A stretch of 37,278 nucleotides of DNA from Candidatus Omnitrophota bacterium (GCA_041667225.1 JBAYFK010000001.1:1-37278), one strand, 5' to 3'. Shown: positions 3,384-27,157, numbered from the stretch's first letter. Translations and numbers: made by a program. The notes: generated by a model from the letters alone, not told the origin.

Positions 3384-5492
3384 ATGATAAAAAAATTTGA
3401 GACGACTTTAGGCGATTCCAATGTGATAATAGAGACCGGCAGGATGGCTAAACAGGCAGATGGCGCTGTAACTGTCCAGCTTGGAGGAACCCTTGTCATT
3501 GTTACGGCTACCAGTTCCGGAGAGCCGAGGGAAGGAATAGATTTTTTCCCGCTTACATGCGAGTATCAGGAGAAGACATACGCCGCAGGGAAGATCCCGG
3601 GCGGTTTTTTTAAGAGAGAAGGAAGGCCTTCCGAGAAAGAGATCCTTTCATCCAGATTGATCGACAGGCCGATGAGGCCGTTATTCCCAAAAGGATATGT
3701 TAATGAGGTACAGATCGTGGCGCTGGTATTGTCCAGTGACTGCGAGAACGATTCAGATGTGCTGGCGATGCTCGGCGCGTCTTGTGCTCTTACTATATCG
3801 GATATCCCGTTCAGCGGGCCGGTAGGGGTCGTCAGGGTAGGTAAGATAGACGGCCAGTTCGTGATCAACCCCACTTTCCAGCAGCTTATGACGAGCGATA
3901 TCGATGTTATAGTAGCCGGGACCCGTTCAGGCGTGGTGATGGTGGAATCGGAGTCGAAAGAGGTCGGCGAAGACGTGATGCTGGACGCCATCAAATTCGC
4001 TCACGAAAAGATGCAGCCGCTGATCGACCTTCAGGAGAAGATGGCAAAAGAATGCGGAAAAGCCAAAAGAGATTTTAAGGCTCGCACGATAGATGAAACG
4101 CTTCTCAAGAAGGTAAGAGAACTTTCTACGGCTAAGCTGGACGAGATCAATAAGCTTAATACCAAAGAGCAGAGAGAAGACGCCATGAGCGCCCTCTCGA
4201 AAAGCCTCATAGAAGATCTCGTTACCGAAGAATCGGAATATACGGATAAAGACGTTAAGGCGGCGCTTCTCGAGGTAGAAGAGGAAGCTGTCCGCAAATA
4301 TATAACAACGGCAAGGAAGCGCGTTGACGGCAGGGCGTTCGATGAGATAAGGAAGATAACCTGCGAAGTCGGTTTATTGCCGCGCACGCACGGTTCCGCT
4401 CTCTTTACACGCGGCCAGACACAGAGCCTTTCTGTTACGACGCTCGGGACGAGCGCTGACGAGCAGATGATAGACGCTCTCGAGGGTGAGACCCAGAAGA
4501 GCTTCATGCTGCATTACAATTTTCCTTCATTCTCAGTCGGAGAGGTAAAACCGATGAGAGGCCCCGGCAGGCGCGAGATAGGGCACGGAGCGCTGGCTGA
4601 GAGGGCATTGAAGGCTGTTATGCCGAACAAGGACAACTTCCCATACACGGTCAGGGTCGTGTCGGAGATACTGGAGTCGAACGGTTCTTCCAGCATGGCG
4701 ACGGTTTGCGCCAGCACGCTCTCTCTTATGGATGCGGGAGTTCCTATATCGAACCCGGTCAGCGGCATAGCTATCGGATTGATAAAAGAGGGGAATGAAG
4801 CCATAATCCTTACGGACATCGGCGGAGTGGAAGACCATTTTGGAGATATGGACTTTAAGGTGGCCGGTACAAAGAACGGCATAACCGCCCTCCAGATGGA
4901 CCTCAAGGTGCAGGGAATAAGCATGGAGATCGTTAAGAACGCACTCGAGGTAGGAAGAAAATCAAGACTGTACATATTGGATAAGATGGTATCTACGATA
5001 TCGAAACCCAAAGAAGGCGTATCGTCATTCGCGCCGCGTATCGTCAGCTTCAAGATAAGTGAAGATAAGATAGGCGCCGTTATAGGTCCCGGCGGTAAAG
5101 TCATAAAGAAGATCATACAGGACACAGGCGTTACGATCGATATCAGCGATGATGGTACTGTGCAGATCGCGTCTACGGACCACGCTGCTATGGATAAAGC
5201 AGTAGCCATAGTCAAATCGATAACGGAAGAGCCGGAAGTCGGCAGGATATACCACAACTGCAAAGTCAAGAAGATCATGAATTTCGGAGCATTCTGCGAG
5301 ATCCTGCCAGGCAAAGAGGGACTCGTCCACGTATCGGAGCTTGCCGATAAATTCGTAAAGAACGTCGAAGACGTAATAAAAGTCGGCGACGAAGTCACGG
5401 TAAAACTTATAGCGGTAGACGATCAGGGGCGCATCAATCTGTCGATCAAACAGGCAAAGCCGCCGGTACAGAATCCGGAACCAGCTAAGTAA
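3384..5492 (+). CDS. pnp: polyribonucleotide nucleotidyltransferase (PNPase)
   Basis: The 702-aa product has two RNase PH-like domains, then a KH domain (IGAVIGPGGKVIKKI) and an S1 domain (GAFCEILPGKEGLVHVSEL). It lies directly downstream of rpsO, as in the conserved operon. Confidence 0.97.
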   Translation: MIKKFETTLGDSNVIIETGRMAKQADGAVTVQLGGTLVIVTATSSGEPREGIDFFPLTCEYQEKTYAAGKIPGGFFKREGRPSEKEILSSRLIDRPMRPLFPKGYVNEVQIVALVLSSDCENDSDVLAMLGASCALTISDIPFSGPVGVVRVGKIDGQFVINPTFQQLMTSDIDVIVAGTRSGVVMVESESKEVGEDVMLDAIKFAHEKMQPLIDLQEKMAKECGKAKRDFKARTIDETLLKKVRELSTAKLDEINKLNTKEQREDAMSALSKSLIEDLVTEESEYTDKDVKAALLEVEEEAVRKYITTARKRVDGRAFDEIRKITCEVGLLPRTHGSALFTRGQTQSLSVTTLGTSADEQMIDALEGETQKSFMLHYNFPSFSVGEVKPMRGPGRREIGHGALAERALKAVMPNKDNFPYTVRVVSEILESNGSSSMATVCASTLSLMDAGVPISNPVSGIAIGLIKEGNEAIILTDIGGVEDHFGDMDFKVAGTKNGITALQMDLKVQGISMEIVKNALEVGRKSRLYILDKMVSTISKPKEGVSSFAPRIVSFKISEDKIGAVIGPGGKVIKKIIQDTGVTIDISDDGTVQIASTDHAAMDKAVAIVKSITEEPEVGRIYHNCKVKKIMNFGAFCEILPGKEGLVHVSELADKFVKNVEDVIKVGDEVTVKLIAVDDQGRINLSIKQAKPPVQNPEPAK

Positions 5493-11475: not shown

Positions 11476-11617
11476 TAGAAAATATATATTTCTAGGACCC
11501 GCGATTTTCTGTATAAACTCGGGGGAGTGATCGAGGGTCTTGAAGAAAATAGGTTTACACCATCTTAACTGCATCGCAGATATGGCTATTCTATAGGTGT
11601 GGATCGATTTTCAAGGA

Positions 11618-11657
11618 CCAGATTGCCTAGAAAAAAGAAGGCAATCTGGTTTTTTTA
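11618..11657 (+). terminator. rho-independent terminator-like hairpin (possible attenuator) 35 nt upstream of the giant gene ATG
   Basis: A perfect 10-bp stem, CCAGATTGCC (11618-11627) / GGCAATCTGG (11640-11649), encloses a 12-nt A-rich loop. Eight consecutive T (11650-11657) follow immediately. Confidence 0.6.
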
Positions 11658-11692
11658 TTGCCTCTGTGTTAATAAAATTGAAAGAGAGATTA

Positions 11693-14600
11693 ATGCCTGA
11701 AAGAAAATTTTTCGATCGATCAAATCCGCTGATCAAGACCATCTCTTTAATACTTCTCATCGCTTTCATAGCCCAGGATATAGCATGGGCTGATCCTCAA
11801 ATCTTTTTAAATCAAAGATCATCAGGCGACAAGTTGGCAGCGTCCACTTTTCTGAGGTCCGAAAAGGCCGTAAATAAAGTAAGCGCAAAAGCCATAGAGT
11901 ACGCTGTCGAAGAGTATAGCGCTATTCCCCGTGAAAAGCTCGACGTAGCATGCGTAAGAGCGTCTATAAGAAGTTTATTGGATAAGAATAAGGAATGGTT
12001 CGCTGCGCATGTCAGCTATTCAATGATGTCTCTTGATGGTACGCCCATAGGCGACGATGCGCATGACGGCGATATCGCCGAAGTGGTGGTAAAATTCGCT
12101 CCCGGCTGGTCGGTCAGGTATTTCGATCCCGCAACAGCTAGACCTCAAGAAGGATTCTCCGCTCCCGTAGCAATTAATGACAGGCTCCATAAACAGCTAA
12201 TAACCGGCCCCGGCGACTCTCCTAAGGGGCCGTTCAATTTCTCATTCGGAGAAGGTGTGGGCCTTCGTCATATGGAGGTTAATAATATCATCGCCTTCCA
12301 TGACCTGACCATTGCAAAAAAGGGTAAGTACCATGAAACCGAATTCTATGAGCGTAAGCTGGATGCCGACAAGGATCCAACTTACCATGCAAAAATAGAA
12401 AGAGCCGCAGACCTTCTGATGGCGCAAGGCATCGTTCTTTTTGCAAAAGGCATGGCCTGCACGATAGCGGCGGGAATACCTTTAATAATGCTTTTTACGA
12501 CCCCTCTCGTCGCTATATTCGGTATTTCCATGCTCCCCATAACTTATATATTCGGAAAAAAAGCGCATAAATATTTCATCAGCGCGAAAGGGTACTACGA
12601 TCGCTCCCTAAGCATAAGGGGTGATACCACGGTAGTACTTGTTGATATCCCGTCCCATCTCCTCCTGAGCGGAAAAGAACTGGATGGCTCCAGCTTTTAC
12701 CAGTTCACCCACATAGGAAGGGCCAGGCGCGTGATCTATATGCCGAAGAAGGCATTGCGCGATATGGATATAGCCGATCCCTACGACATGCGCCAACTCG
12801 CGACAATATTGAACCACGATCAGGTCGAGCTCGACATGATGCACAGAGATAACAGGATAGCCGCCGCAAAGACATACGCGGATTACGAAAATCTTCTTAC
12901 GGCCTTTCATGACGCCGCAAAACTTGAAGACCCATTCGGCGAAGCGGCGCATATAGAAGAGCGCATAGCGGGCTGGATGGAGATGGACGATTCCGCAGCT
13001 TCGATACTTAAAAGAGAGATCGAAGAAAAGGTCATGGAATTCGAGATGCGCCAAAGCAATATATTGGATTCGGAAGAATCGCTGGTCAGCGGCCGCTTCT
13101 CATATATATATACTACTGCTAGCATGGCGATGCAGATCGGTTATGCTTATGAGGTTCTGGGCGACCAAAGATCTGCCCACGAGTATTACGGGAAAGCCTG
13201 GTCCAATTTTGTCGAGGTCGTTTCATCTGACGTATATATACTGCCTATCTATGCCCAGCTCAATATAGTAAGGATCAATGCCTTTGAAGGCGACTATGCG
13301 GAAGCGGCCGTGGATTTTAAAAGGCTGACCAATTATGAGATAGGAGTTCCGCACCCGTCCGCTAAATATGTCAAAGGTTCAGTGCGCGTCGTCGAGACCC
13401 ATATCGCGGAAAATATTGAACGGTGGCGCGATGAGGTTTCGGCCCTTATGCGCCACCATGCTCAGGCCTCTGGCGATGTCGGCGGGATGGAAAGGGCGGC
13501 AGCGGCTATTGAAGATATTACGGGAGCTGTCAGTAAATACCTTGGAGAGCAGGAGGTTTTCGAGAAGAGGGAGAAGGAGCGGGCGAGCTATGGCGAACTT
13601 GTGGAAGAGCTGAGGCGCGCTATCCTGATCGGTAACAAACTTTGGGCGGCAAATGTACAGGATGCGCTTTCAGAGAGATTCAAAGGTGAATTACCGGAAG
13701 AAGTAGAGCGGGTGATAAGAGAGACGAGATCGCCGACCGCCGAGATGATCCCGGATGCCGATACGCTTGCAAGCTACATAGACGAACTGGAAAAGGCGGA
13801 GAATATACTTATAGATGAAGAGCAATATGAAAAAAAGGTCTTAAGGCCGCTATTCGACCTTTTGTTATCGTGCCTTGAGAGGGATTTTGACGGGACAGAT
13901 GAATTTGCTGCACATTGCCGCACTGCCATTTCAAAGCAGGATGCGTATGAGCTCCGGATGCAGATGAATAATAAGGACGAGGCGCTTCTCGATAAATTCA
14001 ACAAGATCAGGAGAAAAGACGGTACAGAAGATACTTCTATAGAACTTTATGGACTGCTCCTATTCCACCTTACTGCGGATTCGACGCCTTACATACGCCG
14101 TCTTTATAAAGAATTTATGCAGACCCGCCCGGTCGACAAAATAGCATTTGCACGCAAAGGAGTATCTTATCATACGCGTGGAGACGCAATAATCTATTAT
14201 TATCCCAAGAACCTTCTATTCGAAGGCAGGCGCGCCAATGCCAGAGAAGGACATAGATACGGAGAGGCGAGCGCTCTGGAGGACGCTAAATCCTCGGAGA
14301 ATGCCAGGAAGATCGCGCGGGCTGTTGAAATGTGGAAAACGGCCGCCGAGAACAACCGGGATCTTGACGAGAGGATAAGGCATTTCGAGGACATAACTTC
14401 TATCGTCGAGTTAAATATGAAGACGTCCCTTCTTTTTTCGGATCCACAGCAGAATGTGGTCCGTCCGATCCACTCAGGAAGAAGCCGTCACAGGCTGTAC
14501 CTTTCCAAGCATTATCTCGATTCGCTCGATATAAATAATGAGAGAGACATGAAAGAGCTCGCCACATGGCTCAATTATGGACAGGACTTTCTGGATACGC

Positions 14601-17600
14601 ACGATTTGATGGCGGATGGGGGATATGCGATACCGCGTATACAGAAGGCCCTTTCGAATTTAACATACTCATTTTTTGATCACGAGGATACCGGACTTTT
14701 AGAGCCGGGCTATCTCAAAGAACGGCTTGCGGCGTTCATGGAAGAGGATTTTCTCATCAAGTACAGGGAAGTGCTTCTTGCTGCGATAAAGGAAGAGAAG
14801 GAGGCCGAGGTTACTATGCGCACGATAGTCGAACCCGGCAGGGCCGCTCCTAATGAATATAAATTGGCGAGGAACTCTTATGGCCATCTTCTTTACCGGT
14901 ATGAGGGATTAGGACTTCGCTCCAAGGCTGACAAGGCCTATATGCAGATGACGATCGCTACGTCCGTCGTTCAGACGCACGAAGGCGGCATCACTCCGTG
15001 CACGGATCAGATCGAGCTTGTGCTTACGGCACTGCGTTTCGCGAGATGGGATGATTTCACAAAAGAACTGCGCAAGCTTTTAACAGGAAAAGGTTATCCC
15101 AGGCCTATCGAAAAGTCGGAGCTGCCTCTCGTCATATTTATGTTACGAGGCCGTTTCCAGAACGATCTTCGGCATGCGATCCATGCGCAGAAAGAGGCTG
15201 CCGATCCGTATTCCTACCCGATAGTGGAAAAGGTGGAGAAAGAGGCCGATAAACTTTTGAAAGAATTCTCAGAACACCCGTTCAGCGATCTGGGGCCTAA
15301 GGATGTCCAGGATAGCACAGCGACTCTTTCGTTCATAGGTAAGGCGCTGGGTATAAGATATTCTTCGTTCTTCCATGCTCCGGTCATCGAAGAAAGCGCC
15401 AAGGTGGGCATACCCTTCGGGATATATGCCGTACTCGATGCGGTCAAGCATTCGTTCCCATCCCTTAATGCAGCTATCTTTGCAGGTGCTATCGCCGTAT
15501 TCGGTATCGTCTTTATCATTGCTCATCTATTGAATGAAAGGGCGCCTCCGCGATCGGCAGGAGAAGCGTTCCGTATCTTTGCGGCGCCTGCTGCCGCGAC
15601 CATCGCAGGCGGTATTCTTTCCTATCTCTTTTTTACAAACCCATTATATGCAATTCTCTCAAGCATTCTCGCTCATCTTATTATAAATGCGATCGTTTGG
15701 GCGCTACGCCGTTTAAATATCGACATCAAATACTCGACCGTATATTTTCCGGGTTCTCATCGTGTGACATGGACAGAGATAGAGCGTATACGTGAACTTT
15801 CCGCAAAATGGGACCTTAAGGCTAACGGGTTGAAAAATCTTGAAGATGTGCTTAAAGACCCGGGAGCTGAAAATGTGCGGCGCGCCATACTTGACCTTCT
15901 TGAAGGGGGAACGTATAGCGCGCTCAGCCGTTTCCAGATGTACAAAGAGAGGGAACGCGGGTCAAAAGCGGAATTCCTTGGAGAATTGGTACAGGCGGCC
16001 TCGTGCCAGAGACGCATCAGGTCTTCAAAGGTCATCGAGATGGGTCCCATATTGGCAGGAGCTGAGATCGATGCAGTTGTCGAAGTAGATCATAAGAAGT
16101 ATGCCTCGAGAAGACAGACAGGGCTTACCTATGACCTTCCCGATGGGATATATCTCATGGAAGGGAAGGTTGACGAGTTTGGCGATATAGAACAGTTCAT
16201 CAGCTATATTTTCGAAACAAAACTTGATAAGTATCTGCGGGCCGCGCGGGAATTGAAGAAGAAGGGCAAGAAAGTTTCAGGGATCATATTTGCCGTAGGC
16301 GGCGGCATAGCCAGCTTGAATCCCGAGGAGTTCAGAAAGAGGCTGATCGAGATGGGAGAGTCGGATGAAGAGATCCTCGCCGCCGGCTTTGATCCCGAAA
16401 AATTCAAGGTATACACTTATCTTGTCCCGGAAACTATCTACGAGGAAGGGCCCAAGACCGCGCTTACGCCTAAGGATATAGAATATATCGATGCGGTAAT
16501 GAAAAGGCCGGAAGAGGATGGCTCTATACCGCAAGAGACGCTTTTAGAGTGCCGTTCGGTCCTTGAGCGCGCGCTTCTCCTGTTTGGGCTTGAGAGGGTG
16601 AGATCCGTCTATCTATCCAACCATTTCAGAAGGCACAATGTAAGCCTCGTGGCCCGTACATACGATATTAATGAATATGCGAAAGCCGTGCTCGACCTTA
16701 AGAGCGACATAGCCGAGATCGATAAAGATATGACCTTTGTCATGGACGATTCGTTCATAGCCGAAGATGGAACGGCTCCCGTTCTCGACGGGAAGAAGAC
16801 CGACAGGGTAAGGAACCCCAACTATGAAAAAATGGATTTCACTCTCGGGCAGAAGACGTGGGGGAATTTCGAGATGTTCATATCGAAGGACAGGTCGACC
16901 GTATATGTTTCGTCCGTTGAGAGGGGTTCTGCCGAGTACTTTTCTATCAACATGGATATGGCAGCGCCGCATCCGCTTATGTACCATTCGGGTGATCTGC
17001 ATATAGCGCTTGACGCATCTATCCCGGCCGCATCCTTAAACAACGGACATAATATAAATATGGCCAGGATCATAGGCATCCTCAGAGAGGCGATCGGGTT
17101 CAGAGAGGAAGTTGTAAAACATGATAGATCGGACTACTATTGGATAGACAGGCTGGGCGGCCGGGGAAATGAATTGGTGTCATACGATATTCTGGCTGCC
17201 CATAAGATCCCGCATCTTATGGAATTTGTCGGCCCTCATGCGCTCATACCGGATCTCTATGCGCTCAACGAAAAGAATAGACTTGAATTGCTTGCGGAAT
17301 TTGGCAGGCATAGTCCTGCGGTCCTGGGCAAAAAGTTCGCTTACGGTTACTATGCGATAGTTTCGGTCCCGCAAGGACGCAGGCCGACGAACGAGAAGTT
17401 CCCTCCGGCAGAGGAGCTTATTTTAAGCGCCAGCATGCCGGATAAATTTCTGCGCAGCCCAGCGCAATTCCAGAAAAGCGCCTCAGTGATAGCTGAAGAG
17501 TTCCTTGCAAACCTCAGGATTTTAGCTTCCGAAGAGGATATGAGTATGCCTGTACCTCGCTCGATCATGGTCGAGGATTCATACGGGAATATGAAGATCC

Positions 17601-20600
17601 GTTTTGAACTGGATCCCGTCAGGAAGGTGATCATCTCCGCCTCTGCCGTAGAAATGGTCCGGACGATATCTCAGAAAGACTTGAGAACCGTATTCATGGA
17701 ATCGGAAAGCATCATCACGTCCAGGACGGGTATGGTGGATATATCGAAGGTACGGCCCTCCAAACTCATGAGGTATGGATATGCAAAGATCGTAGGATCT
17801 AACGGTAACATTGTCATAGCTCCTGTCGAAGGCATGATCCAGAGGCCGATGCCGAGAAACTGGGCAATGGGGTTACCGTTCACATCGCTCGCCGTATCTT
17901 TAGCGGGTAAGCGCTCTGTTCCTGACAAGAAAAAATCCGGGAAGAAAGATGCGCCGTCGCCGAAACGGGAAGTCGTATTCGCGATCGATCTGCCGGCTTC
18001 TACTGGATTTGATGACGATGTACGCGAGAGCGAAAAGATATATGAATTTCTGGATGGATTTGAGCAGGATCATAAGGGTAAGCTAGGCGGGCTATTGGAA
18101 GATGTTCTTGAGGAGTTGATCTTTAATGTTACAGATCATGGCCGCGGCGGAAAGATGGTCATATATATGGAGAAAGACGCTGACGGTGAGCCGGCAGCTA
18201 TTGAGATCGTGACAACTGATAACGGGCCGGGGCTGCCCGATAGTCCCGATGATCTTGTAAAGAAAAGCTTGTTGGCACATGAAAGATTTGTTAATAGCCC
18301 GGATGACGAGCCGGAGCCTTTAGACGATGGTATTGATTATGCATTAATGAATGCTTACAGGGGGCAAGGTTTTGCCAGGATAGCCCTTGACCCGGATAGT
18401 GTTACTATTGAGTGTAACGGCTTGAAGTATTCAAGGTCTACAAACGATAAGAATGCTTCCTCATGGTTCGGTGAACCGGTAAAGAGCGAAGTTACGACCG
18501 GCGCCCGTTTCACCCTCGGTTTCTCATTACGGAGCGAAGCTACCCATATTCCTTCTATCCCTGTTGACCGCAGGCCGGTAGATTCAGGGCTTCTGGCTTC
18601 GAGCTTTGTCGAATACGACATGGACGTCAAAGAAACGGTCAACCCTGACAATAAACCTATTAAGGCTCTCTATTGCGCCTCCGGCGCCGATCTCTCGAAT
18701 TTTCTTCTATCGACTAACGCAACCGAAGGATACTTTGTTTCTCACTACCGTGGGCGTTTCCGCACCATGAGGGGCAAAGACCTAAGGGAGTGCTTTGAAA
18801 GCGCGTCACCAGAGGATTATATAAAAAAGAATCTGTCTCCATATTATCGGGAAAAGTTCGAAAGGGGTTTTGCAGGCACGGAAACCTTTTATAGCATGCG
18901 TCAAACGATCGCCGCTATGGCTTTTGAACTGAAGTCGATCGGTGTTGACTTGTCGACCGTAAAGATAGATACGCTTAACGGCCGGCCCGTCTTACGGTTC
19001 CGATGGAAGTATTATGGCTGCGACGAGCGCGATTATTCCGTAGTCCTTATAGACGCCGATGCGACAAAACCGGAGGAGTATGCCGCTGATCTTGCCGGTG
19101 TTGCTATGGATGTATATTATCAGCGCGCTGGGAATGAGCTTCCTATGGAGTACAGGAAAGGAGCAAAAAGCTATATCGGTTGGATATACGCCAGGATGAA
19201 ACCGGGTGCTTATGTCGTGACAGACGACAACGCTTTTGACAATGCCCAGCAATGGTACCGCGACCTTGGCGGCTCCTTTCCACTGCCGGCTAAAGAGGTC
19301 GACATGCCCGAGCTGTGGCCTATAGAGTGGGTCATTCTCAGGGCTCTGCGCCCTATGGATATATTTAACCATGAAGCGGCGTTTTACGGCTGGCGCATGA
19401 CTGTCCGCCAGAAGCCGATCGACGCGGAGATGGTAACGGACGATATAGGTAATCTTGTGAAGGTGTCCAAAAGGCCTTTCCTGGCAAGGATCGTAGCATA
19501 TTTGCGGGGTAAGGGTATTTCGGAGCGGTGGATAGCGTCTTTGGGCGGGCTCGAGGAATTGTTCTTCAGCGGAATTGTAATAAGCGCTTTTGCTGCAGCA
19601 GCGCCCCATATCTTTGCAATTTCATTCTCAGCCGCCCTTTATACAGGTTTTGGCATAAGCGCCGTCCTATTTACGCTCTCACACATTAAAGAAGTTTACA
19701 GGATGACAGGAGGTGCTCTTACTACCGCGCCTCCTTCAGCCTCGGATATGATCTTTATAACGGGATTGGGAATGGCCTTCCGCGCGGTATATCTTGCGGG
19801 GCTGGCCCTGCTCCCATTTGGCCCTTACAATATAGCAGTTGCTTTACCTCTCATAATAGTTCTTCATAGCATTTATAATGCGTTCATAGCCCCAAGATCG
19901 GACCTTGTTCTGGGTATGGCATCAGTGAACCCGGATAAGCCATTCAAAGAACTCACCCGCATAAACTCTTCTATTGCAACCGATACAACCGCCCTTATCA
20001 ATCAGTTATCGAAAAGCTTCTCGTCGGCATATCTGATAATGAACCCTTTGCGCAACATCAAAGCCGGCCTTGCCAGATATGGTTATGTTAAGCGGACCTC
20101 TCTGGAATCATGCCGCCTTGGAATAAGACGTATTCTGGCCACATGGCATCTTTCCGAAACTAAAAAGAAGAAGCTCTCGGCCGCTCTTAACAGGATAGAT
20201 AAGATACTGGCCAAGATGGACCGCATGGACGGGATGATAGACGGTATTGAGCTATTACCTCGCGGCGTAAGCGTCTCTTCCGTCGCATCAGGCCTCAACA
20301 TTTGTGTGATAAGACTGAAGAGCATACTCGAAGGGATCAGGGAAGAGGATGTCCATCTCATCGAAAGACTGGAAGGCATAAGCGCCTCTATTCACGAGAT
20401 GGCAGTCGGGCATGAGGAGATAAACTCTGAAAAATTGATCGGCTATGTAAAGGCATTTAAAGCGATATCGACCCACCAAGGGGTAGGAGATAAGAGCCGC
20501 GCCAGGATATCTCGCCTCGCAGATGACATGAGCGCCTTGTTAGCAAGCGCTAATGAACAGGGTGGAGGATCACGATCCCCGGCAGCCGAGCAGATCGAGA

Positions 20601-23600
20601 CATCACTCTTTGATTCGGAAGATATGAGCCTTATTGACAGGATGTGGATAGCTATGCCAGTCCAGGATGGACGTGATTGGAGCGCTGCCGTAGAAGAGCT
20701 GCAATCCAGGTTCAGCAAAGATCATCCGGGAGACCTCCAGGTAATAGAAGAAGGGGCGTCTTATGACATAGATGAGCGCGTATCGGACCGGTTGGTTAAG
20801 TATGTCGAATCCATTGGCGGGAAACATGCCGGTGACGTACATATAATGACGTCTACTATAAGCGCTGCGCTGCAAAATGTGTATCAGCACGGGGATAATT
20901 ACGGAGCTATGATATTAAGGGCCAGGCGCACGGGCCGAAAGATGGAAGTGGAATTTGTAATAATAGACCGCGGACAAGGGTTTATCGACCGCCAAGGTAA
21001 GCATGTGGATATCCACGAAGCCGTTAAATACGGGAAGTCTTTCGGCGCGAACGGCCAAAGCGGTATAGGGCTGACCATTACCGTTGAGGTGGCCGATAGC
21101 ATTTCTATTACGACCGTCGACAGATCTTCCGGGTCATCGGAGGCTTACTACTGGGAGAAGGGGGACGTTCATGAGTCCCGTCTGAAAACTGCGCCTGTTG
21201 AGAGCGGTTCAAAGATAGTCTTTACCAGAGAGGTCGATTTAACTCCGGAGCCCGATGATCCGAAGGGCGAAAACGTTGCAGTAGAGCCGGCCGCTCAAAG
21301 CGTTGACATTGTTAAATGGTATTTTGAAGAATATGAACCTTCTCAAGTTGAAATGGCCGCATCGTTCAACGATGGGACTCTTACGGGGGACCATATAATA
21401 GAATGGGTAGACCGTGTGGTACGTCCACTAAAGCCGGACTTAGATGTTACCGGGATCGTTGAAACGGGCAAACCATTCACGCCGCGTCAGGCAGGGCTCT
21501 TAGGTGAAAAGATCTTGAAAGATGTCCTTATCCCGCACGGTATCATTGCGCATGTGTCGGCCGTTGCTTCAGGTGTAGCTGTCGGATCGATAACTAATAC
21601 GGAGACGATAACAACACCTGCGGGACGTACGATACCTTTATATACGGTGCGTACTCTGAGAGGTGAATTCGGCCAAGGGACAGCTTTTGCCGAATATGTC
21701 ATCGTGCCGGAAGAGATAGCCAAGGAGTCTCATGAAATTGCAGATCATTATGCCAAACTATGGCGTGACCACATGGAAGGGCGCGCTCCTGCCGCTCTTT
21801 TCAGATACCAGAAGCGGTATGCGGAATGGATCTTTATGCATCTTTTCGGTAAGTCCGATGCCGCTGCTGCCGCGCGCCTCGTCCGTGAATGTGACCTTGC
21901 AGAGGAGCTGAGCCATTCTGATATGCAGGCTTTTACGGAGACGGTATTAGAAAGGCCTCTCGACACGGCGGTACCTGAGGATGTAGAGGCGGCAAGCCAC
22001 GCGATACTTAAACCCGCATCTATCGAAGAGCTCGCCTTTGAAGCAGCCCGCGACGGCGAAACTCGTTATATCCTCGCTGAGGCAGTTCTTGAGGTTGAAG
22101 CAAAGCTTAATGCTATAATACGCTCGCCGATGAGCGCCTATAATTTCCTCGAGTTCCTGCACGGAAATGTCGTCGACCTGCATATACCCGGTGATGAGCC
22201 GCCGGAATATAACGTTGCCAGGAATATACTCCTATCCGTTATGAGTAAACACCTTTTCGGCAAGAGCACTACGGACACTCGCGAGTGGAGAGACTATCTT
22301 GACGAGACGTTATGGAATATGGACGAATTTAATGCTGCCCTGAAGAAGGCGGCCGCCGCGGCTTACCGCGAAGAATTCTTGAGTCACGATGAAAGAGTAA
22401 AGAAGGCCGAAGGATATAAAACAAGGCGCCGGCACACGGAACTCTACACTAACATGTATAGGGAGCTCGTAAGGCCGCGTTTTGCGCTGGGCGCGCCAAA
22501 GGTCCTTAACATCTGCTCCGGCGCGGGCGCCAGCGCAATATTGTATGCGACTAACTGCTCCTCATCGGTCATGATCGACAGGCTGTCCTTCGGATATAAC
22601 GCAGGAGTGATGAGCGGCCGGTCTGAGCGGACAGAACGGGAGCGATATTTTAATGATATCGCTCAATATGATTTTCCCCGGACTGACACTCTCACAGGGA
22701 TCGGATCTCTCTGGCTTCCTCTTAAGTGGGAGCTGGCAGAGATGGGTATAGGAGAGGATGCGATCACGGTGGATAATCCTGCATATGGCACGTGGCGCGT
22801 CCGTTTTACGTGGCAGCATCCCGACGATGATCAGCCGCGCGAGAGGACATTGTGGTTCTATCAGGAGGACATTCCCGAATCATCGGGCGTTGCCGATCTT
22901 TCGGCCGGCGTAAGGCTTGACGCTCAAAAGGTGGACATCCTGGATGCCGATATACTCTTCGACAGAGCCGCCGAACACACTTTGCGCGCGACTACCGATA
23001 TGCCGCTCTATATGAAACGCAAAAGCATAGTGATCACCGATAATCCGGTCAGAAAAAATATATTCGATACACAGGATTCTCTCGTTCCCGTAACGCTAGA
23101 TCCGGCCCTTTCGGAACAGTCCAGCCGTTTCGGATATGTAGGGAAAAATACGTATGAAAAACATGACGCGCTTGATGCTATGGCGGTCTACGAAGTCCGG
23201 GGTTCGTCTAACGGGTTTTCCGGAGATAACGTCAATATTTATAGCGCAGACTCGCTTACCGGAGAAGAGAGGGATAGGCTCGCCCGTTTTGTGATACGGG
23301 AAGGGCTCGATATAAGTACTACATATATAGGAGAAGATGAACGCGGTATTGAGCTTGGCCGCGCCTATCTCGACAGGTTGACCAGGAAGAACGAGAGCGG
23401 GGAGAGTGGATATTTTGTAGCTTTTAAAGGAGGGGATCCGGTAGGTATCGTCAGTTATGCGGTTCTTCCCGGATGGCTTGCAGCCGAAAGAGAATACGAG
23501 TCTACCATAGACGATCTGTACGTTACCGGTAGCGTCAGAAATCAGGGGATAGCAGCAGATCTCGTGCGGCAGGCCGAAACGCATTTACGAAAGAAGAACG

Positions 23601-26600
23601 TCAAAAATTACTATGTCGTAGTAGGGCAGGGTGCCCCGTCTCAGGACTTCTGGAAAAAATTTATTCCCCGGGAATATCAGACCGTGGATGACAAAGGTGA
23701 GCTCTTTTCATCGATCGTTCCTTTTGAGAACCCAAGAGAGATAGCTCGGGTGGAGGCATGTATAAAAGCCGTGAAGGCGGGCGCGTTCCAGAACGGCAAC
23801 GTGGTCGACTTAAGAAGGATACCGCCCGATATGGAGGTCATTATCGTTGGGGATCTCCATGCGCGGGTGGATAATCTCGGCAATATCCTTGAGCATGCGG
23901 ATCCCGGGACCGGCAAGAGCGTATATGAAAAGGTCAGGGACGGCGAGGCGGTACTCATACTGCTTGGCGATGTGGTGAACAACGATCCTCCGGATACTGA
24001 AAATATCGCGGCCATTGCGGAGCGCCTCTCTTCGATGGAAGAGTCCGTCGATATGATCAAAAAGGTCATGGACCTGAAGATCTCCCATCCGGATAGCGTC
24101 TACTACGTGCTCGGCAATCATGATGATCCTTTTTCCATGTGCAATAGAGGCGGGATAGATCAGTCGAGGATATACAGGGATACGATCCGGTCGCGTTACG
24201 GCGAGAGATATCTTTATCTCTATAACGATCTTATTCAGGCGAGCCCGGTAATGGTCATAGCAGAAGGTCTTGTAGCCACGCATGCTGCCCCAATAAGAAG
24301 GCTCTCTCTTGAGAATATAATCAATGCCGATAAAGATTCTGATGAGATACATTTCGGGATGTGGGGGCGCCATGAATCCCATTTTGGAGATCTGGTCGAT
24401 ATTTCGGAAGACTCGAGTCCCCTCCGCCAGCTGCTTTATCAGTCGCGCAGGGAGCAGTCGTACGACAGCAGAGATGTTGTTGAATTCCTCGATAGGGTCG
24501 GCCAAAAAGACGGCGTATTCATCGTAGGCCATACACCTGATCTTATACCGGAAGGCGATTTCCACGCCGAGATCGAGGATAGACATCACATTATATATGC
24601 CGCGCGCGATAAGACGGGATACGCTTCGTTCACAGCCGGCAAGCTCGATTTTGTGGAAACGTCCGCCGTTGAAATGCCGCGCGTAGAAAGATCATCGCCA
24701 ACGCCATCGTCCGGTCTTAAGCTTGCCGACAAAGTCCTTTTAGCGCTGCCGATCGAGGAACAGCAGAGAGTGGACGCGGTGGTGCGTTTTGCCGCGCATG
24801 TGATGAGGCTTAGCGGAATAGGAGATGCAGATCTGGAAAAGGAAGCCGCTTTCGACGCCATCCCTGCTTCGACTGTAGCGGCGTTCATGCTGGCCGAGAG
24901 AGATAAAGACGCTAAACTTGACAGTTATGATGAGAGCTGGGAGGCGGACGCGATAATATTTTTAGGTCATAACCATCCGTTATTCAAAGATACTAAAGTG
25001 ACGCCGAAACTGAGCATACGCGTTCTTTTCGAGATGCGTAAGCGCGGTATGCAGGTTTCAGAATATTGTATTTCCATGTGCGATTCCGTAGATAAGCTCG
25101 TATCATTCCTTTTGAACGGCCCGCTCGAAGAGAAAGAGAGGATGGCCCGCGCAACCCTTATGATAGAAGAGCTTGGAATGAAAGATCTCATCCCATGGTC
25201 GGCCGCAGCGCTCGACAGGATATCTCTTTACGCTGAATGGGCCGGTACACCCGACGAAGCGCGCGTTGCGTGCTCTTTCCTGGAGCATTTCACCGGGCAC
25301 CTTTTTGAGTCACGCGCCATGGCAGATGCGTTCATGTTCAATCTGTCCGTGGTGGAGGGTTTCCTTGGCCCAGGCAATATAAATAACAAGGATACGGGGG
25401 TCGTCTATCTTCTCGGCGGGGCAAGCCTGCTGTACGACCAGGCCAGACAGATCGCCTTATCTTTAAAGGTCAGTCCTTCGCGTATACATCCGTTCTCTTT
25501 GAACAGGAAGACGGCTGAAAGCGATGACGAGACGATAAGGGAATACATAAAACAGGAAGGCCTCGACCGCTATAAAAATCTCGTCATAGTCGACACAGGG
25601 TTCCATGGCAGCATGGCGCGCCGTCTTAAAGATGTATTGGGATCGATGCCGAACTCTCCCCGTAACGTACACGCGAGACTTTTGGCGATGAGCTCAGAAC
25701 CGTATGAATACAAGGGTATGGATGTTCTGGGATATAACCATGTTCTTCAGGAGGTAGATCCAAATTGGTCCGAGATCGATAGGAACGCTCTTTTCTTAAT
25801 AACCCATCTCCTCGATAACATATTCCCAAAACGCGAACAGTCGCCCGGCCGTCTCGATACTGCGAACGTTCTCGTGGCCGTCACTCCGGTTACTGTACCT
25901 TCGGAAGTGCCAGGTTTTGCAGCTATAGTGTCCAACGAGATGCGACTCGGTACGGGCAGATTATTATCACGCGGTTTCGAATATCCCGATCCGGGGAATA
26001 GCGTGTGGGAGAGATGGATTCCCTCCGGAAAAGATGAAATGGAAGGCGCTCCAGCGGCGGAAATTCCGGACCTTCTCGACAGTACGGTCAGGGGCAACGC
26101 TTCATACGGTAAATTGAAACAGGAATTGACATCCCGGTTTACGCGTCTCGGCCAGAAGGGCGTTTCTTTAGATAGTGTGGAGGATGTTCTCGATGAAAAT
26201 AGCGTAGAGATCTTCCAGGCGATGTGGGGCCTGAGGAACATCTTTACCGGTTCCAAGTTTTCTGATGAAAGGGCGCAGACGGATATGTGCTATGAGGTGA
26301 GCGTGGCTGTATGCGAAGCTTTTGACGAAGCGGTCCCCGGCCATGAAATCGTCCTCATGAGCGGATATTATGACGATGCCGGAGGCGGGCTCTTTAGAAT
26401 ACCTCATTTCTGGGTAGTGATAGACGGCGATATCGCAATAGACCTTACATACGGACAGTTCGATAGCGAATACGAGGATACCGCTCTCGTTGTCCGGACC
26501 GGAGAGCTCCCGCGGTACAAGCTGGAGCAGGGGAAGGTGGCTCCTTGGAAGAGCGCTCCTAGACCCCAGACATCAGTAGCCGCTACCATTTCAGCCATAC

Positions 26601-27157
26601 ATTATGCGTTGAAGACCGACGCTTCTCATCAGGCCGGGTCGAGGATACTTCTTTCTGCCAGCTTATTTGATGATATCGACCGCTCAAATCTTGAAAGATT
26701 GTTCAATGGCACAAATATAGAGATAGTGGAGCCGGAAGAGCTCAAGCGCAGGACGATGAACGAACATTCTTCCAAAGAAAACCTTGCGGTCGTGCTTACG
26801 CAGGAAGATTTCACGCAGGGTAAGACGTGGAGCGGCGCCGAAGATGATTACAGGGTGAAGTCGAGCGTGCTCATATTGGGAGACAAGCTGACCGGTTCTA
26901 ATTATTTATATCTGGAAGGCGTGATAGAGCTTGCCAGAGCGATGATGCGTTCGGATAGAAATGGTATTAAAGAGGCATACGAGCTCATATCCGGCGCCAT
27001 TCTTAGCGATGAGGCCTTGAGTAAGCTCGGGCCTTCGCCCAACACCATAGCGTTCGCGATCAATGCGATACTCAAGTTCAGGCCCATAGTAGTGCACGAT
27101 ACGGGAGAGTTGGAAAGATTTAAGAGCATGGTAGAGCGTTATCTTATAAACGCATAA
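11693..27157 (+). CDS. giant multidomain polytopic membrane protein (about 5,150 aa) of unknown function, with CPBP-like x2, GHKL ATPase-like x2, GNAT, metallophosphatase and Cys-His-Asp papain/transglutaminase-like signatures
   Basis: A single open frame runs 15.5 kb with no stop. I chose ATG 11693 (MPERKFFDRSNPLIKTISLILLIAFIAQDIAWADP, a signal anchor), because the track start GTG 11597 would translate through the terminator-like hairpin. Domain motifs are detailed in the findings. Product name and function are unknown. Confidence 0.9.
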   Translation: MPERKFFDRSNPLIKTISLILLIAFIAQDIAWADPQIFLNQRSSGDKLAASTFLRSEKAVNKVSAKAIEYAVEEYSAIPREKLDVACVRASIRSLLDKNKEWFAAHVSYSMMSLDGTPIGDDAHDGDIAEVVVKFAPGWSVRYFDPATARPQEGFSAPVAINDRLHKQLITGPGDSPKGPFNFSFGEGVGLRHMEVNNIIAFHDLTIAKKGKYHETEFYERKLDADKDPTYHAKIERAADLLMAQGIVLFAKGMACTIAAGIPLIMLFTTPLVAIFGISMLPITYIFGKKAHKYFISAKGYYDRSLSIRGDTTVVLVDIPSHLLLSGKELDGSSFYQFTHIGRARRVIYMPKKALRDMDIADPYDMRQLATILNHDQVELDMMHRDNRIAAAKTYADYENLLTAFHDAAKLEDPFGEAAHIEERIAGWMEMDDSAASILKREIEEKVMEFEMRQSNILDSEESLVSGRFSYIYTTASMAMQIGYAYEVLGDQRSAHEYYGKAWSNFVEVVSSDVYILPIYAQLNIVRINAFEGDYAEAAVDFKRLTNYEIGVPHPSAKYVKGSVRVVETHIAENIERWRDEVSALMRHHAQASGDVGGMERAAAAIEDITGAVSKYLGEQEVFEKREKERASYGELVEELRRAILIGNKLWAANVQDALSERFKGELPEEVERVIRETRSPTAEMIPDADTLASYIDELEKAENILIDEEQYEKKVLRPLFDLLLSCLERDFDGTDEFAAHCRTAISKQDAYELRMQMNNKDEALLDKFNKIRRKDGTEDTSIELYGLLLFHLTADSTPYIRRLYKEFMQTRPVDKIAFARKGVSYHTRGDAIIYYYPKNLLFEGRRANAREGHRYGEASALEDAKSSENARKIARAVEMWKTAAENNRDLDERIRHFEDITSIVELNMKTSLLFSDPQQNVVRPIHSGRSRHRLYLSKHYLDSLDINNERDMKELATWLNYGQDFLDTHDLMADGGYAIPRIQKALSNLTYSFFDHEDTGLLEPGYLKERLAAFMEEDFLIKYREVLLAAIKEEKEAEVTMRTIVEPGRAAPNEYKLARNSYGHLLYRYEGLGLRSKADKAYMQMTIATSVVQTHEGGITPCTDQIELVLTALRFARWDDFTKELRKLLTGKGYPRPIEKSELPLVIFMLRGRFQNDLRHAIHAQKEAADPYSYPIVEKVEKEADKLLKEFSEHPFSDLGPKDVQDSTATLSFIGKALGIRYSSFFHAPVIEESAKVGIPFGIYAVLDAVKHSFPSLNAAIFAGAIAVFGIVFIIAHLLNERAPPRSAGEAFRIFAAPAAATIAGGILSYLFFTNPLYAILSSILAHLIINAIVWALRRLNIDIKYSTVYFPGSHRVTWTEIERIRELSAKWDLKANGLKNLEDVLKDPGAENVRRAILDLLEGGTYSALSRFQMYKERERGSKAEFLGELVQAASCQRRIRSSKVIEMGPILAGAEIDAVVEVDHKKYASRRQTGLTYDLPDGIYLMEGKVDEFGDIEQFISYIFETKLDKYLRAARELKKKGKKVSGIIFAVGGGIASLNPEEFRKRLIEMGESDEEILAAGFDPEKFKVYTYLVPETIYEEGPKTALTPKDIEYIDAVMKRPEEDGSIPQETLLECRSVLERALLLFGLERVRSVYLSNHFRRHNVSLVARTYDINEYAKAVLDLKSDIAEIDKDMTFVMDDSFIAEDGTAPVLDGKKTDRVRNPNYEKMDFTLGQKTWGNFEMFISKDRSTVYVSSVERGSAEYFSINMDMAAPHPLMYHSGDLHIALDASIPAASLNNGHNINMARIIGILREAIGFREEVVKHDRSDYYWIDRLGGRGNELVSYDILAAHKIPHLMEFVGPHALIPDLYALNEKNRLELLAEFGRHSPAVLGKKFAYGYYAIVSVPQGRRPTNEKFPPAEELILSASMPDKFLRSPAQFQKSASVIAEEFLANLRILASEEDMSMPVPRSIMVEDSYGNMKIRFELDPVRKVIISASAVEMVRTISQKDLRTVFMESESIITSRTGMVDISKVRPSKLMRYGYAKIVGSNGNIVIAPVEGMIQRPMPRNWAMGLPFTSLAVSLAGKRSVPDKKKSGKKDAPSPKREVVFAIDLPASTGFDDDVRESEKIYEFLDGFEQDHKGKLGGLLEDVLEELIFNVTDHGRGGKMVIYMEKDADGEPAAIEIVTTDNGPGLPDSPDDLVKKSLLAHERFVNSPDDEPEPLDDGIDYALMNAYRGQGFARIALDPDSVTIECNGLKYSRSTNDKNASSWFGEPVKSEVTTGARFTLGFSLRSEATHIPSIPVDRRPVDSGLLASSFVEYDMDVKETVNPDNKPIKALYCASGADLSNFLLSTNATEGYFVSHYRGRFRTMRGKDLRECFESASPEDYIKKNLSPYYREKFERGFAGTETFYSMRQTIAAMAFELKSIGVDLSTVKIDTLNGRPVLRFRWKYYGCDERDYSVVLIDADATKPEEYAADLAGVAMDVYYQRAGNELPMEYRKGAKSYIGWIYARMKPGAYVVTDDNAFDNAQQWYRDLGGSFPLPAKEVDMPELWPIEWVILRALRPMDIFNHEAAFYGWRMTVRQKPIDAEMVTDDIGNLVKVSKRPFLARIVAYLRGKGISERWIASLGGLEELFFSGIVISAFAAAAPHIFAISFSAALYTGFGISAVLFTLSHIKEVYRMTGGALTTAPPSASDMIFITGLGMAFRAVYLAGLALLPFGPYNIAVALPLIIVLHSIYNAFIAPRSDLVLGMASVNPDKPFKELTRINSSIATDTTALINQLSKSFSSAYLIMNPLRNIKAGLARYGYVKRTSLESCRLGIRRILATWHLSETKKKKLSAALNRIDKILAKMDRMDGMIDGIELLPRGVSVSSVASGLNICVIRLKSILEGIREEDVHLIERLEGISASIHEMAVGHEEINSEKLIGYVKAFKAISTHQGVGDKSRARISRLADDMSALLASANEQGGGSRSPAAEQIETSLFDSEDMSLIDRMWIAMPVQDGRDWSAAVEELQSRFSKDHPGDLQVIEEGASYDIDERVSDRLVKYVESIGGKHAGDVHIMTSTISAALQNVYQHGDNYGAMILRARRTGRKMEVEFVIIDRGQGFIDRQGKHVDIHEAVKYGKSFGANGQSGIGLTITVEVADSISITTVDRSSGSSEAYYWEKGDVHESRLKTAPVESGSKIVFTREVDLTPEPDDPKGENVAVEPAAQSVDIVKWYFEEYEPSQVEMAASFNDGTLTGDHIIEWVDRVVRPLKPDLDVTGIVETGKPFTPRQAGLLGEKILKDVLIPHGIIAHVSAVASGVAVGSITNTETITTPAGRTIPLYTVRTLRGEFGQGTAFAEYVIVPEEIAKESHEIADHYAKLWRDHMEGRAPAALFRYQKRYAEWIFMHLFGKSDAAAAARLVRECDLAEELSHSDMQAFTETVLERPLDTAVPEDVEAASHAILKPASIEELAFEAARDGETRYILAEAVLEVEAKLNAIIRSPMSAYNFLEFLHGNVVDLHIPGDEPPEYNVARNILLSVMSKHLFGKSTTDTREWRDYLDETLWNMDEFNAALKKAAAAAYREEFLSHDERVKKAEGYKTRRRHTELYTNMYRELVRPRFALGAPKVLNICSGAGASAILYATNCSSSVMIDRLSFGYNAGVMSGRSERTERERYFNDIAQYDFPRTDTLTGIGSLWLPLKWELAEMGIGEDAITVDNPAYGTWRVRFTWQHPDDDQPRERTLWFYQEDIPESSGVADLSAGVRLDAQKVDILDADILFDRAAEHTLRATTDMPLYMKRKSIVITDNPVRKNIFDTQDSLVPVTLDPALSEQSSRFGYVGKNTYEKHDALDAMAVYEVRGSSNGFSGDNVNIYSADSLTGEERDRLARFVIREGLDISTTYIGEDERGIELGRAYLDRLTRKNESGESGYFVAFKGGDPVGIVSYAVLPGWLAAEREYESTIDDLYVTGSVRNQGIAADLVRQAETHLRKKNVKNYYVVVGQGAPSQDFWKKFIPREYQTVDDKGELFSSIVPFENPREIARVEACIKAVKAGAFQNGNVVDLRRIPPDMEVIIVGDLHARVDNLGNILEHADPGTGKSVYEKVRDGEAVLILLGDVVNNDPPDTENIAAIAERLSSMEESVDMIKKVMDLKISHPDSVYYVLGNHDDPFSMCNRGGIDQSRIYRDTIRSRYGERYLYLYNDLIQASPVMVIAEGLVATHAAPIRRLSLENIINADKDSDEIHFGMWGRHESHFGDLVDISEDSSPLRQLLYQSRREQSYDSRDVVEFLDRVGQKDGVFIVGHTPDLIPEGDFHAEIEDRHHIIYAARDKTGYASFTAGKLDFVETSAVEMPRVERSSPTPSSGLKLADKVLLALPIEEQQRVDAVVRFAAHVMRLSGIGDADLEKEAAFDAIPASTVAAFMLAERDKDAKLDSYDESWEADAIIFLGHNHPLFKDTKVTPKLSIRVLFEMRKRGMQVSEYCISMCDSVDKLVSFLLNGPLEEKERMARATLMIEELGMKDLIPWSAAALDRISLYAEWAGTPDEARVACSFLEHFTGHLFESRAMADAFMFNLSVVEGFLGPGNINNKDTGVVYLLGGASLLYDQARQIALSLKVSPSRIHPFSLNRKTAESDDETIREYIKQEGLDRYKNLVIVDTGFHGSMARRLKDVLGSMPNSPRNVHARLLAMSSEPYEYKGMDVLGYNHVLQEVDPNWSEIDRNALFLITHLLDNIFPKREQSPGRLDTANVLVAVTPVTVPSEVPGFAAIVSNEMRLGTGRLLSRGFEYPDPGNSVWERWIPSGKDEMEGAPAAEIPDLLDSTVRGNASYGKLKQELTSRFTRLGQKGVSLDSVEDVLDENSVEIFQAMWGLRNIFTGSKFSDERAQTDMCYEVSVAVCEAFDEAVPGHEIVLMSGYYDDAGGGLFRIPHFWVVIDGDIAIDLTYGQFDSEYEDTALVVRTGELPRYKLEQGKVAPWKSAPRPQTSVAATISAIHYALKTDASHQAGSRILLSASLFDDIDRSNLERLFNGTNIEIVEPEELKRRTMNEHSSKENLAVVLTQEDFTQGKTWSGAEDDYRVKSSVLILGDKLTGSNYLYLEGVIELARAMMRSDRNGIKEAYELISGAILSDEALSKLGPSPNTIAFAINAILKFRPIVVHDTGELERFKSMVERYLINA

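Follow-up and report, generated by a model that had tools for sequence, protein, structure and literature searches.

GNAT and PPP-like metallophosphoesterase modules adjoin in a giant mosaic protein of an Omnitrophota bacterium

Why do an acetyltransferase domain and a phosphatase domain adjoin in one bacterial polypeptide of more than five thousand residues, and do they work as one enzyme? The question is raised by a 37,278-nucleotide stretch of DNA from Candidatus Omnitrophota bacterium (GCA_041667225.1 JBAYFK010000001.1:1-37278, hereafter the window), in which a single plus-strand open reading frame (ORF; 11597-27157, 5,186 codons from GTG 11597, 15.5 kb) holds both domains. Residue numbers are counted throughout from this GTG. 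What very long proteins do is a general question in the Omnitrophota, ultra-small bacteria that probably live as predators or symbionts. Our results suggest, with a probability of about 60%, that the two modules are independent membrane-tethered enzymes in a shuffled mosaic rather than one coupled bifunctional enzyme. In this reading, the region 23231-24691 encodes two autonomous catalytic modules with a flexible linker between them, a GNAT of ~165 amino acids (aa) and a metallophosphoesterase of ~320 aa with PPP (PP1/PP5/calcineurin-like) ancestry.

An earlier note, made from the DNA alone, had claimed that a GNAT acetyltransferase and a calcineurin-like metallophosphatase adjoin here. Every motif string that it quoted was found where it had been placed, exactly and in one frame: the segment opening with GYFVAF at 23408, RNQGIA at 23537-23554, VIIVGDLHA at 23837, ILLGDVVNND at 23957, YVLGNHDD at 24104, LVATHAAP at 24269-24292 and FIVGHTPD at 24518 (His 24530). 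Both domains were also borne out by profile searches. When ten overlapping 700-aa segments of the giant protein were scanned with Pfam at curated cut-offs, two matches exceeded them, PF00583 and PF00149, both of them significant and far above chance. The first (43.3 bits, E 5.1e-11, cut-off 20.7) covers aa 3932-4021 and reads RNQGIA at motif A (R-x-x-G-x-A, aa 3981-3986), where related GNAT modules have RHQGIA, RDSGIG or NRGIG.

The predicted fold of the GNAT agrees with its profile. A first AlphaFold2 (AF2) model, built from 55 homologues, left this domain unmodelled because the alignment gave it no coverage. An exhaustive HMMER scan with aa 3600-4799 as query, which retrieved 400 proteins at E <= 1e-3, yielded seven related GNAT modules, and a second model made from eight module sequences showed the canonical order of strands and helices (predicted local distance difference test, pLDDT, 82.7; predicted template modelling score, pTM, 0.79). 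The top 50 Foldseek matches of this model in the PDB were all GNATs (E 4e-7 to 2e-5), in which protein acetyltransferases (NatD, Naa60, RimI, GCN5, HP0935) are mixed with enzymes acting on small molecules (PaiA, the DpA polyamine enzyme, AAC, glyphosate acetyltransferase). A profile search of PDB sequences gave PaiA-like, aminoglycoside, thialysine and polyamine acetyltransferases as the best matches (E 2e-5 to 1e-3). Membership of the GNAT superfamily is secure, and the substrate class lies beyond what fold and profile resolve. The domain shares with PaiA, the polyamine and aminoglycoside acetyltransferases, RimI and the Nat enzymes a PF00583 match above cut-off, motif A and a complete predicted fold, but it differs from them in belonging to a separate module family, of which the motifs AIST, EVGRAY and QDFW are characteristic. 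This family was located only in long proteins and in one protein of 166 aa, and a word-indexed homologue search with the GNAT alone found nothing.

The second Pfam match, PF00149 (39.3 bits, E 1.3e-9, cut-off 21.5), covers aa 4079-4313 and positions 1-188 of the 191 in the profile. The ordered motifs DxH / GD / GNH(D/E) / H / GH are all present, the GNH(E/D) signature as LGNHDD (aa 4172-4177) in the PPP-like context LKIxxPxxVYYLxGNHD. The key residues are D4086 (23852), H4088 (23858), D4125 (23969), N4174-H4175 (24116-24121), H4229 (24281) and H4312 (24530). Across 94 related modules, D4086, H4088, D4125, H4175, H4229 and H4312 are kept in all, and position 4174 holds N in 86 of them and D in the other 8. 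Because these seven ligand and catalytic residues are invariant or nearly so, the binuclear metal site, as far as residues can tell, appears intact.

By profile and by fold, the nearest solved relatives of the module are genuinely the PPP-family Ser/Thr phosphatases. In the AF2 model from 55 homologues, pLDDT exceeds 90 over almost all of aa ~4049-4360, and the top 50 Foldseek matches in the PDB are almost exclusively PPP enzymes (PP5, calcineurin, PP2A, RDGC), with E ~1e-11, target TM-scores (template modelling) of 0.65-0.76 and identities of 13-16%. A profile of 24 modules matched, among PDB sequences, BSU1 (7.9e-16), the PP1 isoforms (~1e-11) and PP5, calcineurin and PP2A (1e-11 to 1e-8). 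Its alignment with PP1 and BSU1 pairs GDLHA with GDIHG, LGDxxH with LGDYVDR, LKxxxPxxVYYLLGNHD with LKIEYPxxIHLIRGNHE, and HAGP with HGG. This alignment, the confident model and its superposition on PPP structures speak indirectly for a clustering of the metal ligands in space. The module thus resembles PP1, PP5, calcineurin, PP2A and BSU1, as well as the bacterial PrpA, PrpE and ApaH, in its GDxH, GD and (L/R)GNH(D/E) context, its H-A/G-G motif and its seven conserved metal and catalytic residues. It differs from PPPs in being embedded in a membrane protein of 5 thousand amino acids (kaa) and in motif I, which ends in Ala here (GDLHA) rather than in the Gly of the PPP signature GDxHG; the last position is A in 41 of the 94 modules, G in 28 and another residue in 25.

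The distribution of the two modules bears on whether they make one enzyme. Of the retrieved proteins, at least 138 carry the phosphatase module, including 57 of at least 1,000 aa, 24 of at least 3,000 aa and 42 stand-alone proteins of at most 400 aa; it may lie anywhere along the chain, sometimes in two copies, and its named carriers are Omnitrophota. Elsewhere its neighbours are HATPase_c together with a PrmA-like methyltransferase (P0142), or two methyltransferases (P0156). The GNAT module family is found in nine proteins, five of which lack the phosphatase module. Among the 138, the two occur together only in the species of the window, in its orthologue P0129 and in P0137, where the order is reversed: the phosphatase module is followed by a Peptidase_M50 membrane domain and then by the same GNAT module. 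P0137 is an 840-aa fragment (L005 2-2521, JGI 3300033064) whose ORF leaves both ends of a 2.5-kb contig.

Since the GNAT partner recurs, outside the species of the window, only in P0129 and P0137, combinatorial domain shuffling accounts for the adjacency better than an obligate two-domain enzyme would. One might instead imagine a dedicated bifunctional unit that takes one substrate, such as an amino-sugar phosphate, a polyamine or an antibiotic-like molecule, through successive steps, for example acetylation and dephosphorylation. The adjacency is indeed kept in P0129, both module families meet again in P0137, and the GNATs nearest by profile act on small molecules. We nevertheless find such a unit distinctly unlikely, given the rarity of the GNAT partner among the 138 proteins, the reversed order and the intervening protease domain in P0137, the five GNAT-module proteins devoid of the phosphatase, and an inter-domain linker of ~20 residues that is modelled with low confidence, as disordered (AF2 model residues 146-165).

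The giant gene is vertically inherited and selectively maintained, yet it gains and loses modules, as follows from a syntenic orthologue, low ratios of nonsynonymous to synonymous substitution rates (dN/dS) and two unshared blocks. The orthologue P0129, a protein of 4,816 aa, matches the giant protein collinearly at 64% identity, and its locus in GCA_041643025.1 has the identical pnp…pgpA-giant-ligT-cinA-recA…hisB neighbourhood. Between the two species, the GNAT is 67% identical (dN/dS 0.15) and the phosphatase 69% identical (dN/dS 0.17), in line with the other shared regions tested (63-74%, dN/dS 0.10-0.21); the neighbouring genes are 76-95% identical. Both domains are under purifying selection, and the GNAT of P0129 matches PF00583 with 59.1 bits. 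The blocks of the window not shared with P0129 (compared with L004 8001-22451) are domain D and the first GHKL-like domain with its following domain X1 (aa 2103-2630; 17903-19486), at the place of which P0129 has a weak second GNAT match.

How are these enzymes set within the protein? From its N to its C terminus, the chain would run through a signal peptide, a helical region of ~1,200 aa, a CPBP-like cluster, a GHKL-like domain with an X domain, a second such cluster and a second such pair, the GNAT, the phosphatase, domain D and a conserved C terminus (Table 1), each module coming from a family shuffled among long Omnitrophota proteins. A hydropathy scan showed four hydrophobic clusters: an N-terminal segment resembling a signal peptide (…LILLIAFIAQDIAWA, followed by DP), a hairpin at ~aa 273-308, and two larger membrane clusters at ~aa 1258-1370 and ~aa 2650-2765. 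Counted from the annotated ATG, the putative signal peptide looks cleavable, with an AXA site (AWA before DP), and would make this a protein of the signal-peptide-plus-transmembrane type. Both larger clusters carry EE, FxxxH and HxxxN cores; they resemble CPBP/Rce1-type intramembrane glutamic proteases, which could process the long chain. Each is followed by a GHKL-like region and then by an X domain of no known family.

Acetyl-CoA and ATP are cytoplasmic, and a GNAT needs the former as a GHKL domain needs the latter. For this reason, the C-terminal half, ~2,400 aa that follow the last membrane cluster, would face the cytoplasm. There the GNAT would N-acylate an amine with acetyl-CoA, and the phosphatase, using H4175 as its general acid, would hydrolyse a phosphomonoester by means of a metal-bridged hydroxide. 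On the cytoplasmic side of the membrane, both would most probably modify proteins, by acetylation and dephosphorylation; three observations point to such targets, namely that the fold is PPP-like, that GHKL, PrmA-like and intramembrane-protease modules accompany the domain, and that some distant relatives of ~693 aa have weak FHA matches. Within this modular picture, protein substrates for the phosphatase are a tentative proposal, to which we give a little less than even odds.

An exported effector would place the same domains on the other side of the membrane. After secretion, and possibly after cleavage by its own CPBP-like domains, the protein would act in predation or host interaction, on targets at the surface or in the cytoplasm of the prey. 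Its N terminus resembles a signal peptide with an AXA site, two protease-like domains of the CPBP kind are embedded in the chain, and giant Omnitrophota proteins have been tied to attachment and predation (PMC10066038; bioRxiv 10.1101/2023.11.21.568195). But Pfam found no adhesin, dockerin, SecA-DEAD or glycoside-hydrolase domains in it, acetyl-CoA and ATP are unavailable outside the cell, the neighbouring genes are housekeeping genes rather than genes for secretion or pili, and the hydropathy pattern fits a cytoplasmic C-terminal half. We consider export very unlikely.

Several observations weigh against the reading of two membrane-tethered, cytoplasmic and probably protein-directed enzymes. 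The topology was drawn from the hydropathy scan and the cofactor argument only, and predictions of transmembrane segments in giant proteins were described as unreliable, with many such domains predicted to be extracellular (bioRxiv 10.1101/2023.11.21.568195). The GHKL/HATPase assignments are below threshold, judged on sequence matches, and so are the weak FHA matches (P0018, P0014) mentioned above. FHA is a phosphothreonine-binding domain. As for substrates, neither sequence nor fold identifies that of the GNAT or that of the phosphatase, and the nearest GNATs by sequence profile acetylate small molecules, namely polyamines and aminoglycosides.

Motif II of the phosphatase also counts against this reading. 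It is GDVVNND instead of GDxxDRG, so that the Asp is missing and, with it, the Arg that binds phosphate. In PPPs, this Asp-Arg pair positions the general acid and binds phosphate. The loss is family-wide, with GDxxH as the consensus of the module. The PPP kinship proposed by the earlier note is borne out by the nearest relatives, which are PPPs by profile and fold, while the PPP signature is incomplete at this motif. The His of GDxxH is reminiscent of the GDLFH of Mre11/SbcD-type enzymes. Bacterial PPPs with an altered motif II, such as ApaH, an Ap4A hydrolase, and the Alphs, are possibly not protein phosphatases, and the specificity of bacterial PPPs is broad or directed at other substrates than proteins (PMC535813). 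Because changes in motif II accompany shifts in specificity (PMC535813), the substrate cannot be read from the fold. The module might thus be an ApaH-like hydrolase of nucleotides or dinucleoside polyphosphates, or a phosphodiesterase whose substrates are small molecules or the ends of nucleic acids. We regard this as unlikely, though worth serious attention: the best matches by profile and fold are PP1, BSU1, PP5, calcineurin and PP2A, not ApaH or Mre11, and the module accompanies FHA-like, GHKL and PrmA-like modules, which are typically protein-directed.

The copy in the window departs further from its own family. Its motif II has Asn at position 4128 (AAC, 23978-23980), a residue unique among the 94 modules; His stands there in 92 of them, that of the orthologue among these. 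Since three independent assemblies agree on the codon, N4128 is a real lineage-specific substitution. It lies next to the active site and may alter the activity of this copy. Could the module have become a pseudo-enzyme, catalytically impaired in this species and kept for scaffolding or binding? The substitution itself is what suggests so. However, the metal and general-acid residues, seven in all, are intact, the dN/dS of 0.17 is close to that of the rest of the protein, and an Asn can still hydrogen-bond the general-acid His. We hold such an impairment to be highly improbable.

Earlier studies of giant genes provide the natural frame for comparison. Omnitrophota often have giant ORFs that are rich in transmembrane helices and poor in annotated domains (Seymour et al., PMC10066038), a finding shared by West-Roberts et al. 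(bioRxiv 10.1101/2023.11.21.568195), who list GNATs and HATPase_c among the frequent domains; both studies link these proteins to attachment and predation. A further preprint describes methyltransferase, HATPase_c, GNAT and HAD/HD domains co-occurring as 'Module 1' in proteins of at least 10 kaa, and reads the class with transmembrane segments only as cytoplasmic enzymes anchored in the inner membrane (bioRxiv 10.64898/2026.06.07.730766). At 5.2 kaa, the giant protein of the window belongs among the shorter representatives of this described class of long, multi-enzyme Omnitrophota proteins, a placement that the earlier note had not made. Like the proteins of the two preprints, it comes from this phylum, has a signal peptide and multiple transmembrane clusters, is a mosaic of divergent enzymatic domains that include GNAT and HATPase-like ones, has few annotated domains and is poorly conserved outside close relatives. 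Unlike them, it stays, at 5,154 aa, below the cut-offs of 10 kaa and 30 kaa, and it is devoid of SecA-DEAD, dockerin, C39 and S8 domains. In the absence of SecA-DEAD and dockerin domains, for which Pfam was run at E <= 1 on all ten overlapping 700-aa segments, it is neither an Archaeovorin nor of the Dockerin type; adhesin, glycoside-hydrolase, C39 and S8 domains were not found by Pfam either. The PPP-like module family with GDxxH goes unmentioned in the main text of either preprint, where 'metallophos' occurs 0 times (supplements apart).

A second comparison concerns opposing activities on one polypeptide. The earlier note had counted two kinase-like domains upstream of the GNAT. What lies there are two GHKL/HATPase-like regions below the Pfam cut-offs (19.6 and 21.8 bits), each with N, G1 and G2 boxes, and nothing in them marks protein kinases. 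Its picture of a toolkit for post-translational modification, with kinase opposing phosphatase and an acetyltransferase added, leans on these sub-threshold domains and would be no more than a plausible reading of the sequence. There is a formal similarity with RsbW/SpoIIAB and RsbU/SpoIIE, since the GHKL-like domains best match PF13581, of the anti-sigma-factor kinase type, and a phosphatase stands on the same polypeptide. The differences are that this phosphatase is PPP-like and not PP2C, that no STAS/anti-anti-sigma domain was found, that the GHKL matches are below threshold and that the gene has no sigma-factor context. Matches to HisKA, STAS and PP2C/SpoIIE were all missing from the giant protein, and those to STAS and PP2C/SpoIIE also from its neighbours.

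A bolder version of the modular picture would make the giant protein a self-contained modification machine embedded in the membrane, or a polyprotein. GHKL kinase-like, PPP-like phosphatase, GNAT and further modules would be strung between two CPBP-type intramembrane proteases. By cutting the chain, or the targets of the chain, these proteases would set the enzymes free or control them, and the previously unremarked GDxxH module family would be a phylum-wide signalling currency of these ultra-small, host-dependent bacteria. We offer this as a long shot. Our results do not reveal a new kind of system. Their value lies mainly in a reusable PPP-like cassette and in fragments that can be assayed: one long Omnitrophota protein is shown to contain intact, selectively maintained GNAT and PPP-like phosphatase modules, and the latter, distinguished by its GDxxH motif II, is reused widely as a cassette and travels with GHKL ATPase, methyltransferase and intramembrane-protease modules. 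With soluble fragments of ~165 and ~320 aa now defined, which could be expressed and assayed, a 'dark' megaprotein becomes amenable to tractable biochemistry.

Table 1. Features of the giant gene, in window coordinates.
Feature	Coordinates	Strand	Basis and remarks
Giant gene	11693..27157	+	annotated ATG start, 5,154 aa; NCBI MFA6609229.1
Probable Sec signal peptide or signal anchor, MPERKFFDRSNPLIKTISLILLIAFIAQDIAWA followed by DP	11693..11791	+	hydropathy scan and sequence reading
Transmembrane cluster 1, CPBP/Rce1-like (EESAK, FIIAH, HLIIN)	15368..15706	+	PF02517 18.5 bits, below 22.4 cut-off
GHKL/HATPase-like domain 1 (N box ELIFNVTDHG, G1 DNGPGL, G2 GQGFARI)	18014..18556	+	PF02518 19.6 bits, below cut-off
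Transmembrane cluster 2, CPBP/Rce1-like (EELFF, FTLSH, HSIYN)	19544..19891	+	PF02517 18.7 bits, below 22.4 cut-off
GHKL/HATPase-like domain 2 (ALQNVYQHG, DRGQGF, GQSGIGL)	20774..21286	+	PF13581 21.8 bits, E 2e-4, below 27.4 cut-off
Domain X2, no known family	22433..23212	+	common to P0179, P0216, P0237, P0247; no Pfam/PDB match
GNAT acyl-CoA N-acyltransferase domain (aa 3879-4042)	23231..23722	+	Pfam, profile, AF2, Foldseek
PPP-like binuclear metallophosphoesterase module (aa 4043-4365)	23723..24691	+	Pfam, AF2, Foldseek, profile, alignment
Domain D (aa 4366-4820, 455 aa), no known family	24692..26056	+	no Pfam/PDB match
Conserved C-terminal region (aa 4821-5186)	26057..27154	+	shared with P0129, partly with P0183; no Pfam/PDB match

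The first GHKL-like domain shows homology (44 bits) with a part of P0142 whose PF02518 match clears the cut-off, and domain D, missing from P0129, is ~40% identical in six other long proteins (P0131-P0136). The X domains, domain D and the C terminus had no match in Pfam, NCBIfam or PDB sequences. Single-sequence searches of the PDB gave nothing significant for the two-domain region, both GHKL-like regions, X2, D or the C terminus, and NCBIfam gave only weak, sub-threshold matches (RimI, AAC(6') and HaaN for the GNAT, CmoA for the second GHKL-like region). The arrangement of a GHKL-like domain with an X domain is repeated on the plus strand at 18014-19426 and 20774-23212, and X1 (aa 2330-2610, 18584-19426) and X2 look paralogous by eye (CASGADLS…RFRW and CSGAGAS…RFTW). 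When the giant protein was compared with itself by BLAST, no internal repeat reached significance, so the pairing of the X domains, like that of the CPBP-like clusters, is a reading of motifs only. In the C-terminal region, at ~26300-26570 (aa ~4900-4990), the segment CYEVSVAVCEAF … PHFWVVIDGDIAIDLTYGQFD resembles by eye the Cys-His-Asp core of transglutaminases and papain, with no match in Pfam or the PDB.

The gene lies among ordinary bacterial housekeeping genes. On its 5' side are genes for a DHH-family protein, truB, ribF, rpsO, pnp, dut, ftsK, rodZ, a MiaB/RimO-like radical-SAM enzyme, pgsA and pgpA; on its 3' side are ligT/thpR and cinA, on the minus strand, followed by recA, recX, alaS and hisDBHA. 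With these neighbours and the conserved synteny, an origin in a phage or mobile element was ruled out. The locus is present in three independent assemblies (JGI, ENA and Logan) at 99.8-100% nucleotide identity, which likewise excludes an assembly artefact as the origin of the ORF. NCBI assigns RecA, AlaS, polynucleotide phosphorylase (PNPase) and the giant protein all to Ca. Omnitrophota bacterium. No Rfam families or tRNAs were found in the window, PADLOC matched no defence-system model, and antisense ORFs in 23096-24888 had no Pfam match. A Shine-Dalgarno-like AAAGAGAGA precedes the annotated ATG 11693. The GNAT of the giant protein is already in public annotation: NCBI labels MFA6609229.1 'MAG: GNAT family N-acetyltransferase [Ca. 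Omnitrophota bacterium]', and JGI labels a 3,613-aa fragment 'GNAT superfamily N-acetyltransferase/anti-sigma regulatory factor (Ser/Thr protein kinase)'.

A scan of GTDB representative genomes gave no relative, and a word-indexed search with the two-domain region found only stand-alone metallophosphoesterases of ~30% identity, in Desulfobulbales, Magnetococcales and Chromatiales. Proteins of ~693 aa and of ~480-530 aa from these orders (P0007, P0018, P0014 and others) carry a phosphatase module of ~30% identity, and some of the ~693-aa proteins that were checked have an N-terminal P-loop with weak AAA matches; by their sequences, they may represent an uncharacterised phosphatase family. Finally, the ENA assembly ERZ27249449 has TAG instead of GAG at codon E5045 (window 26729; L002 position 7271). 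This change, be it a nonsense variant at strain level or an error of sequencing, removes the last 142 aa of the giant protein, and an ORF of 133 aa is called downstream.

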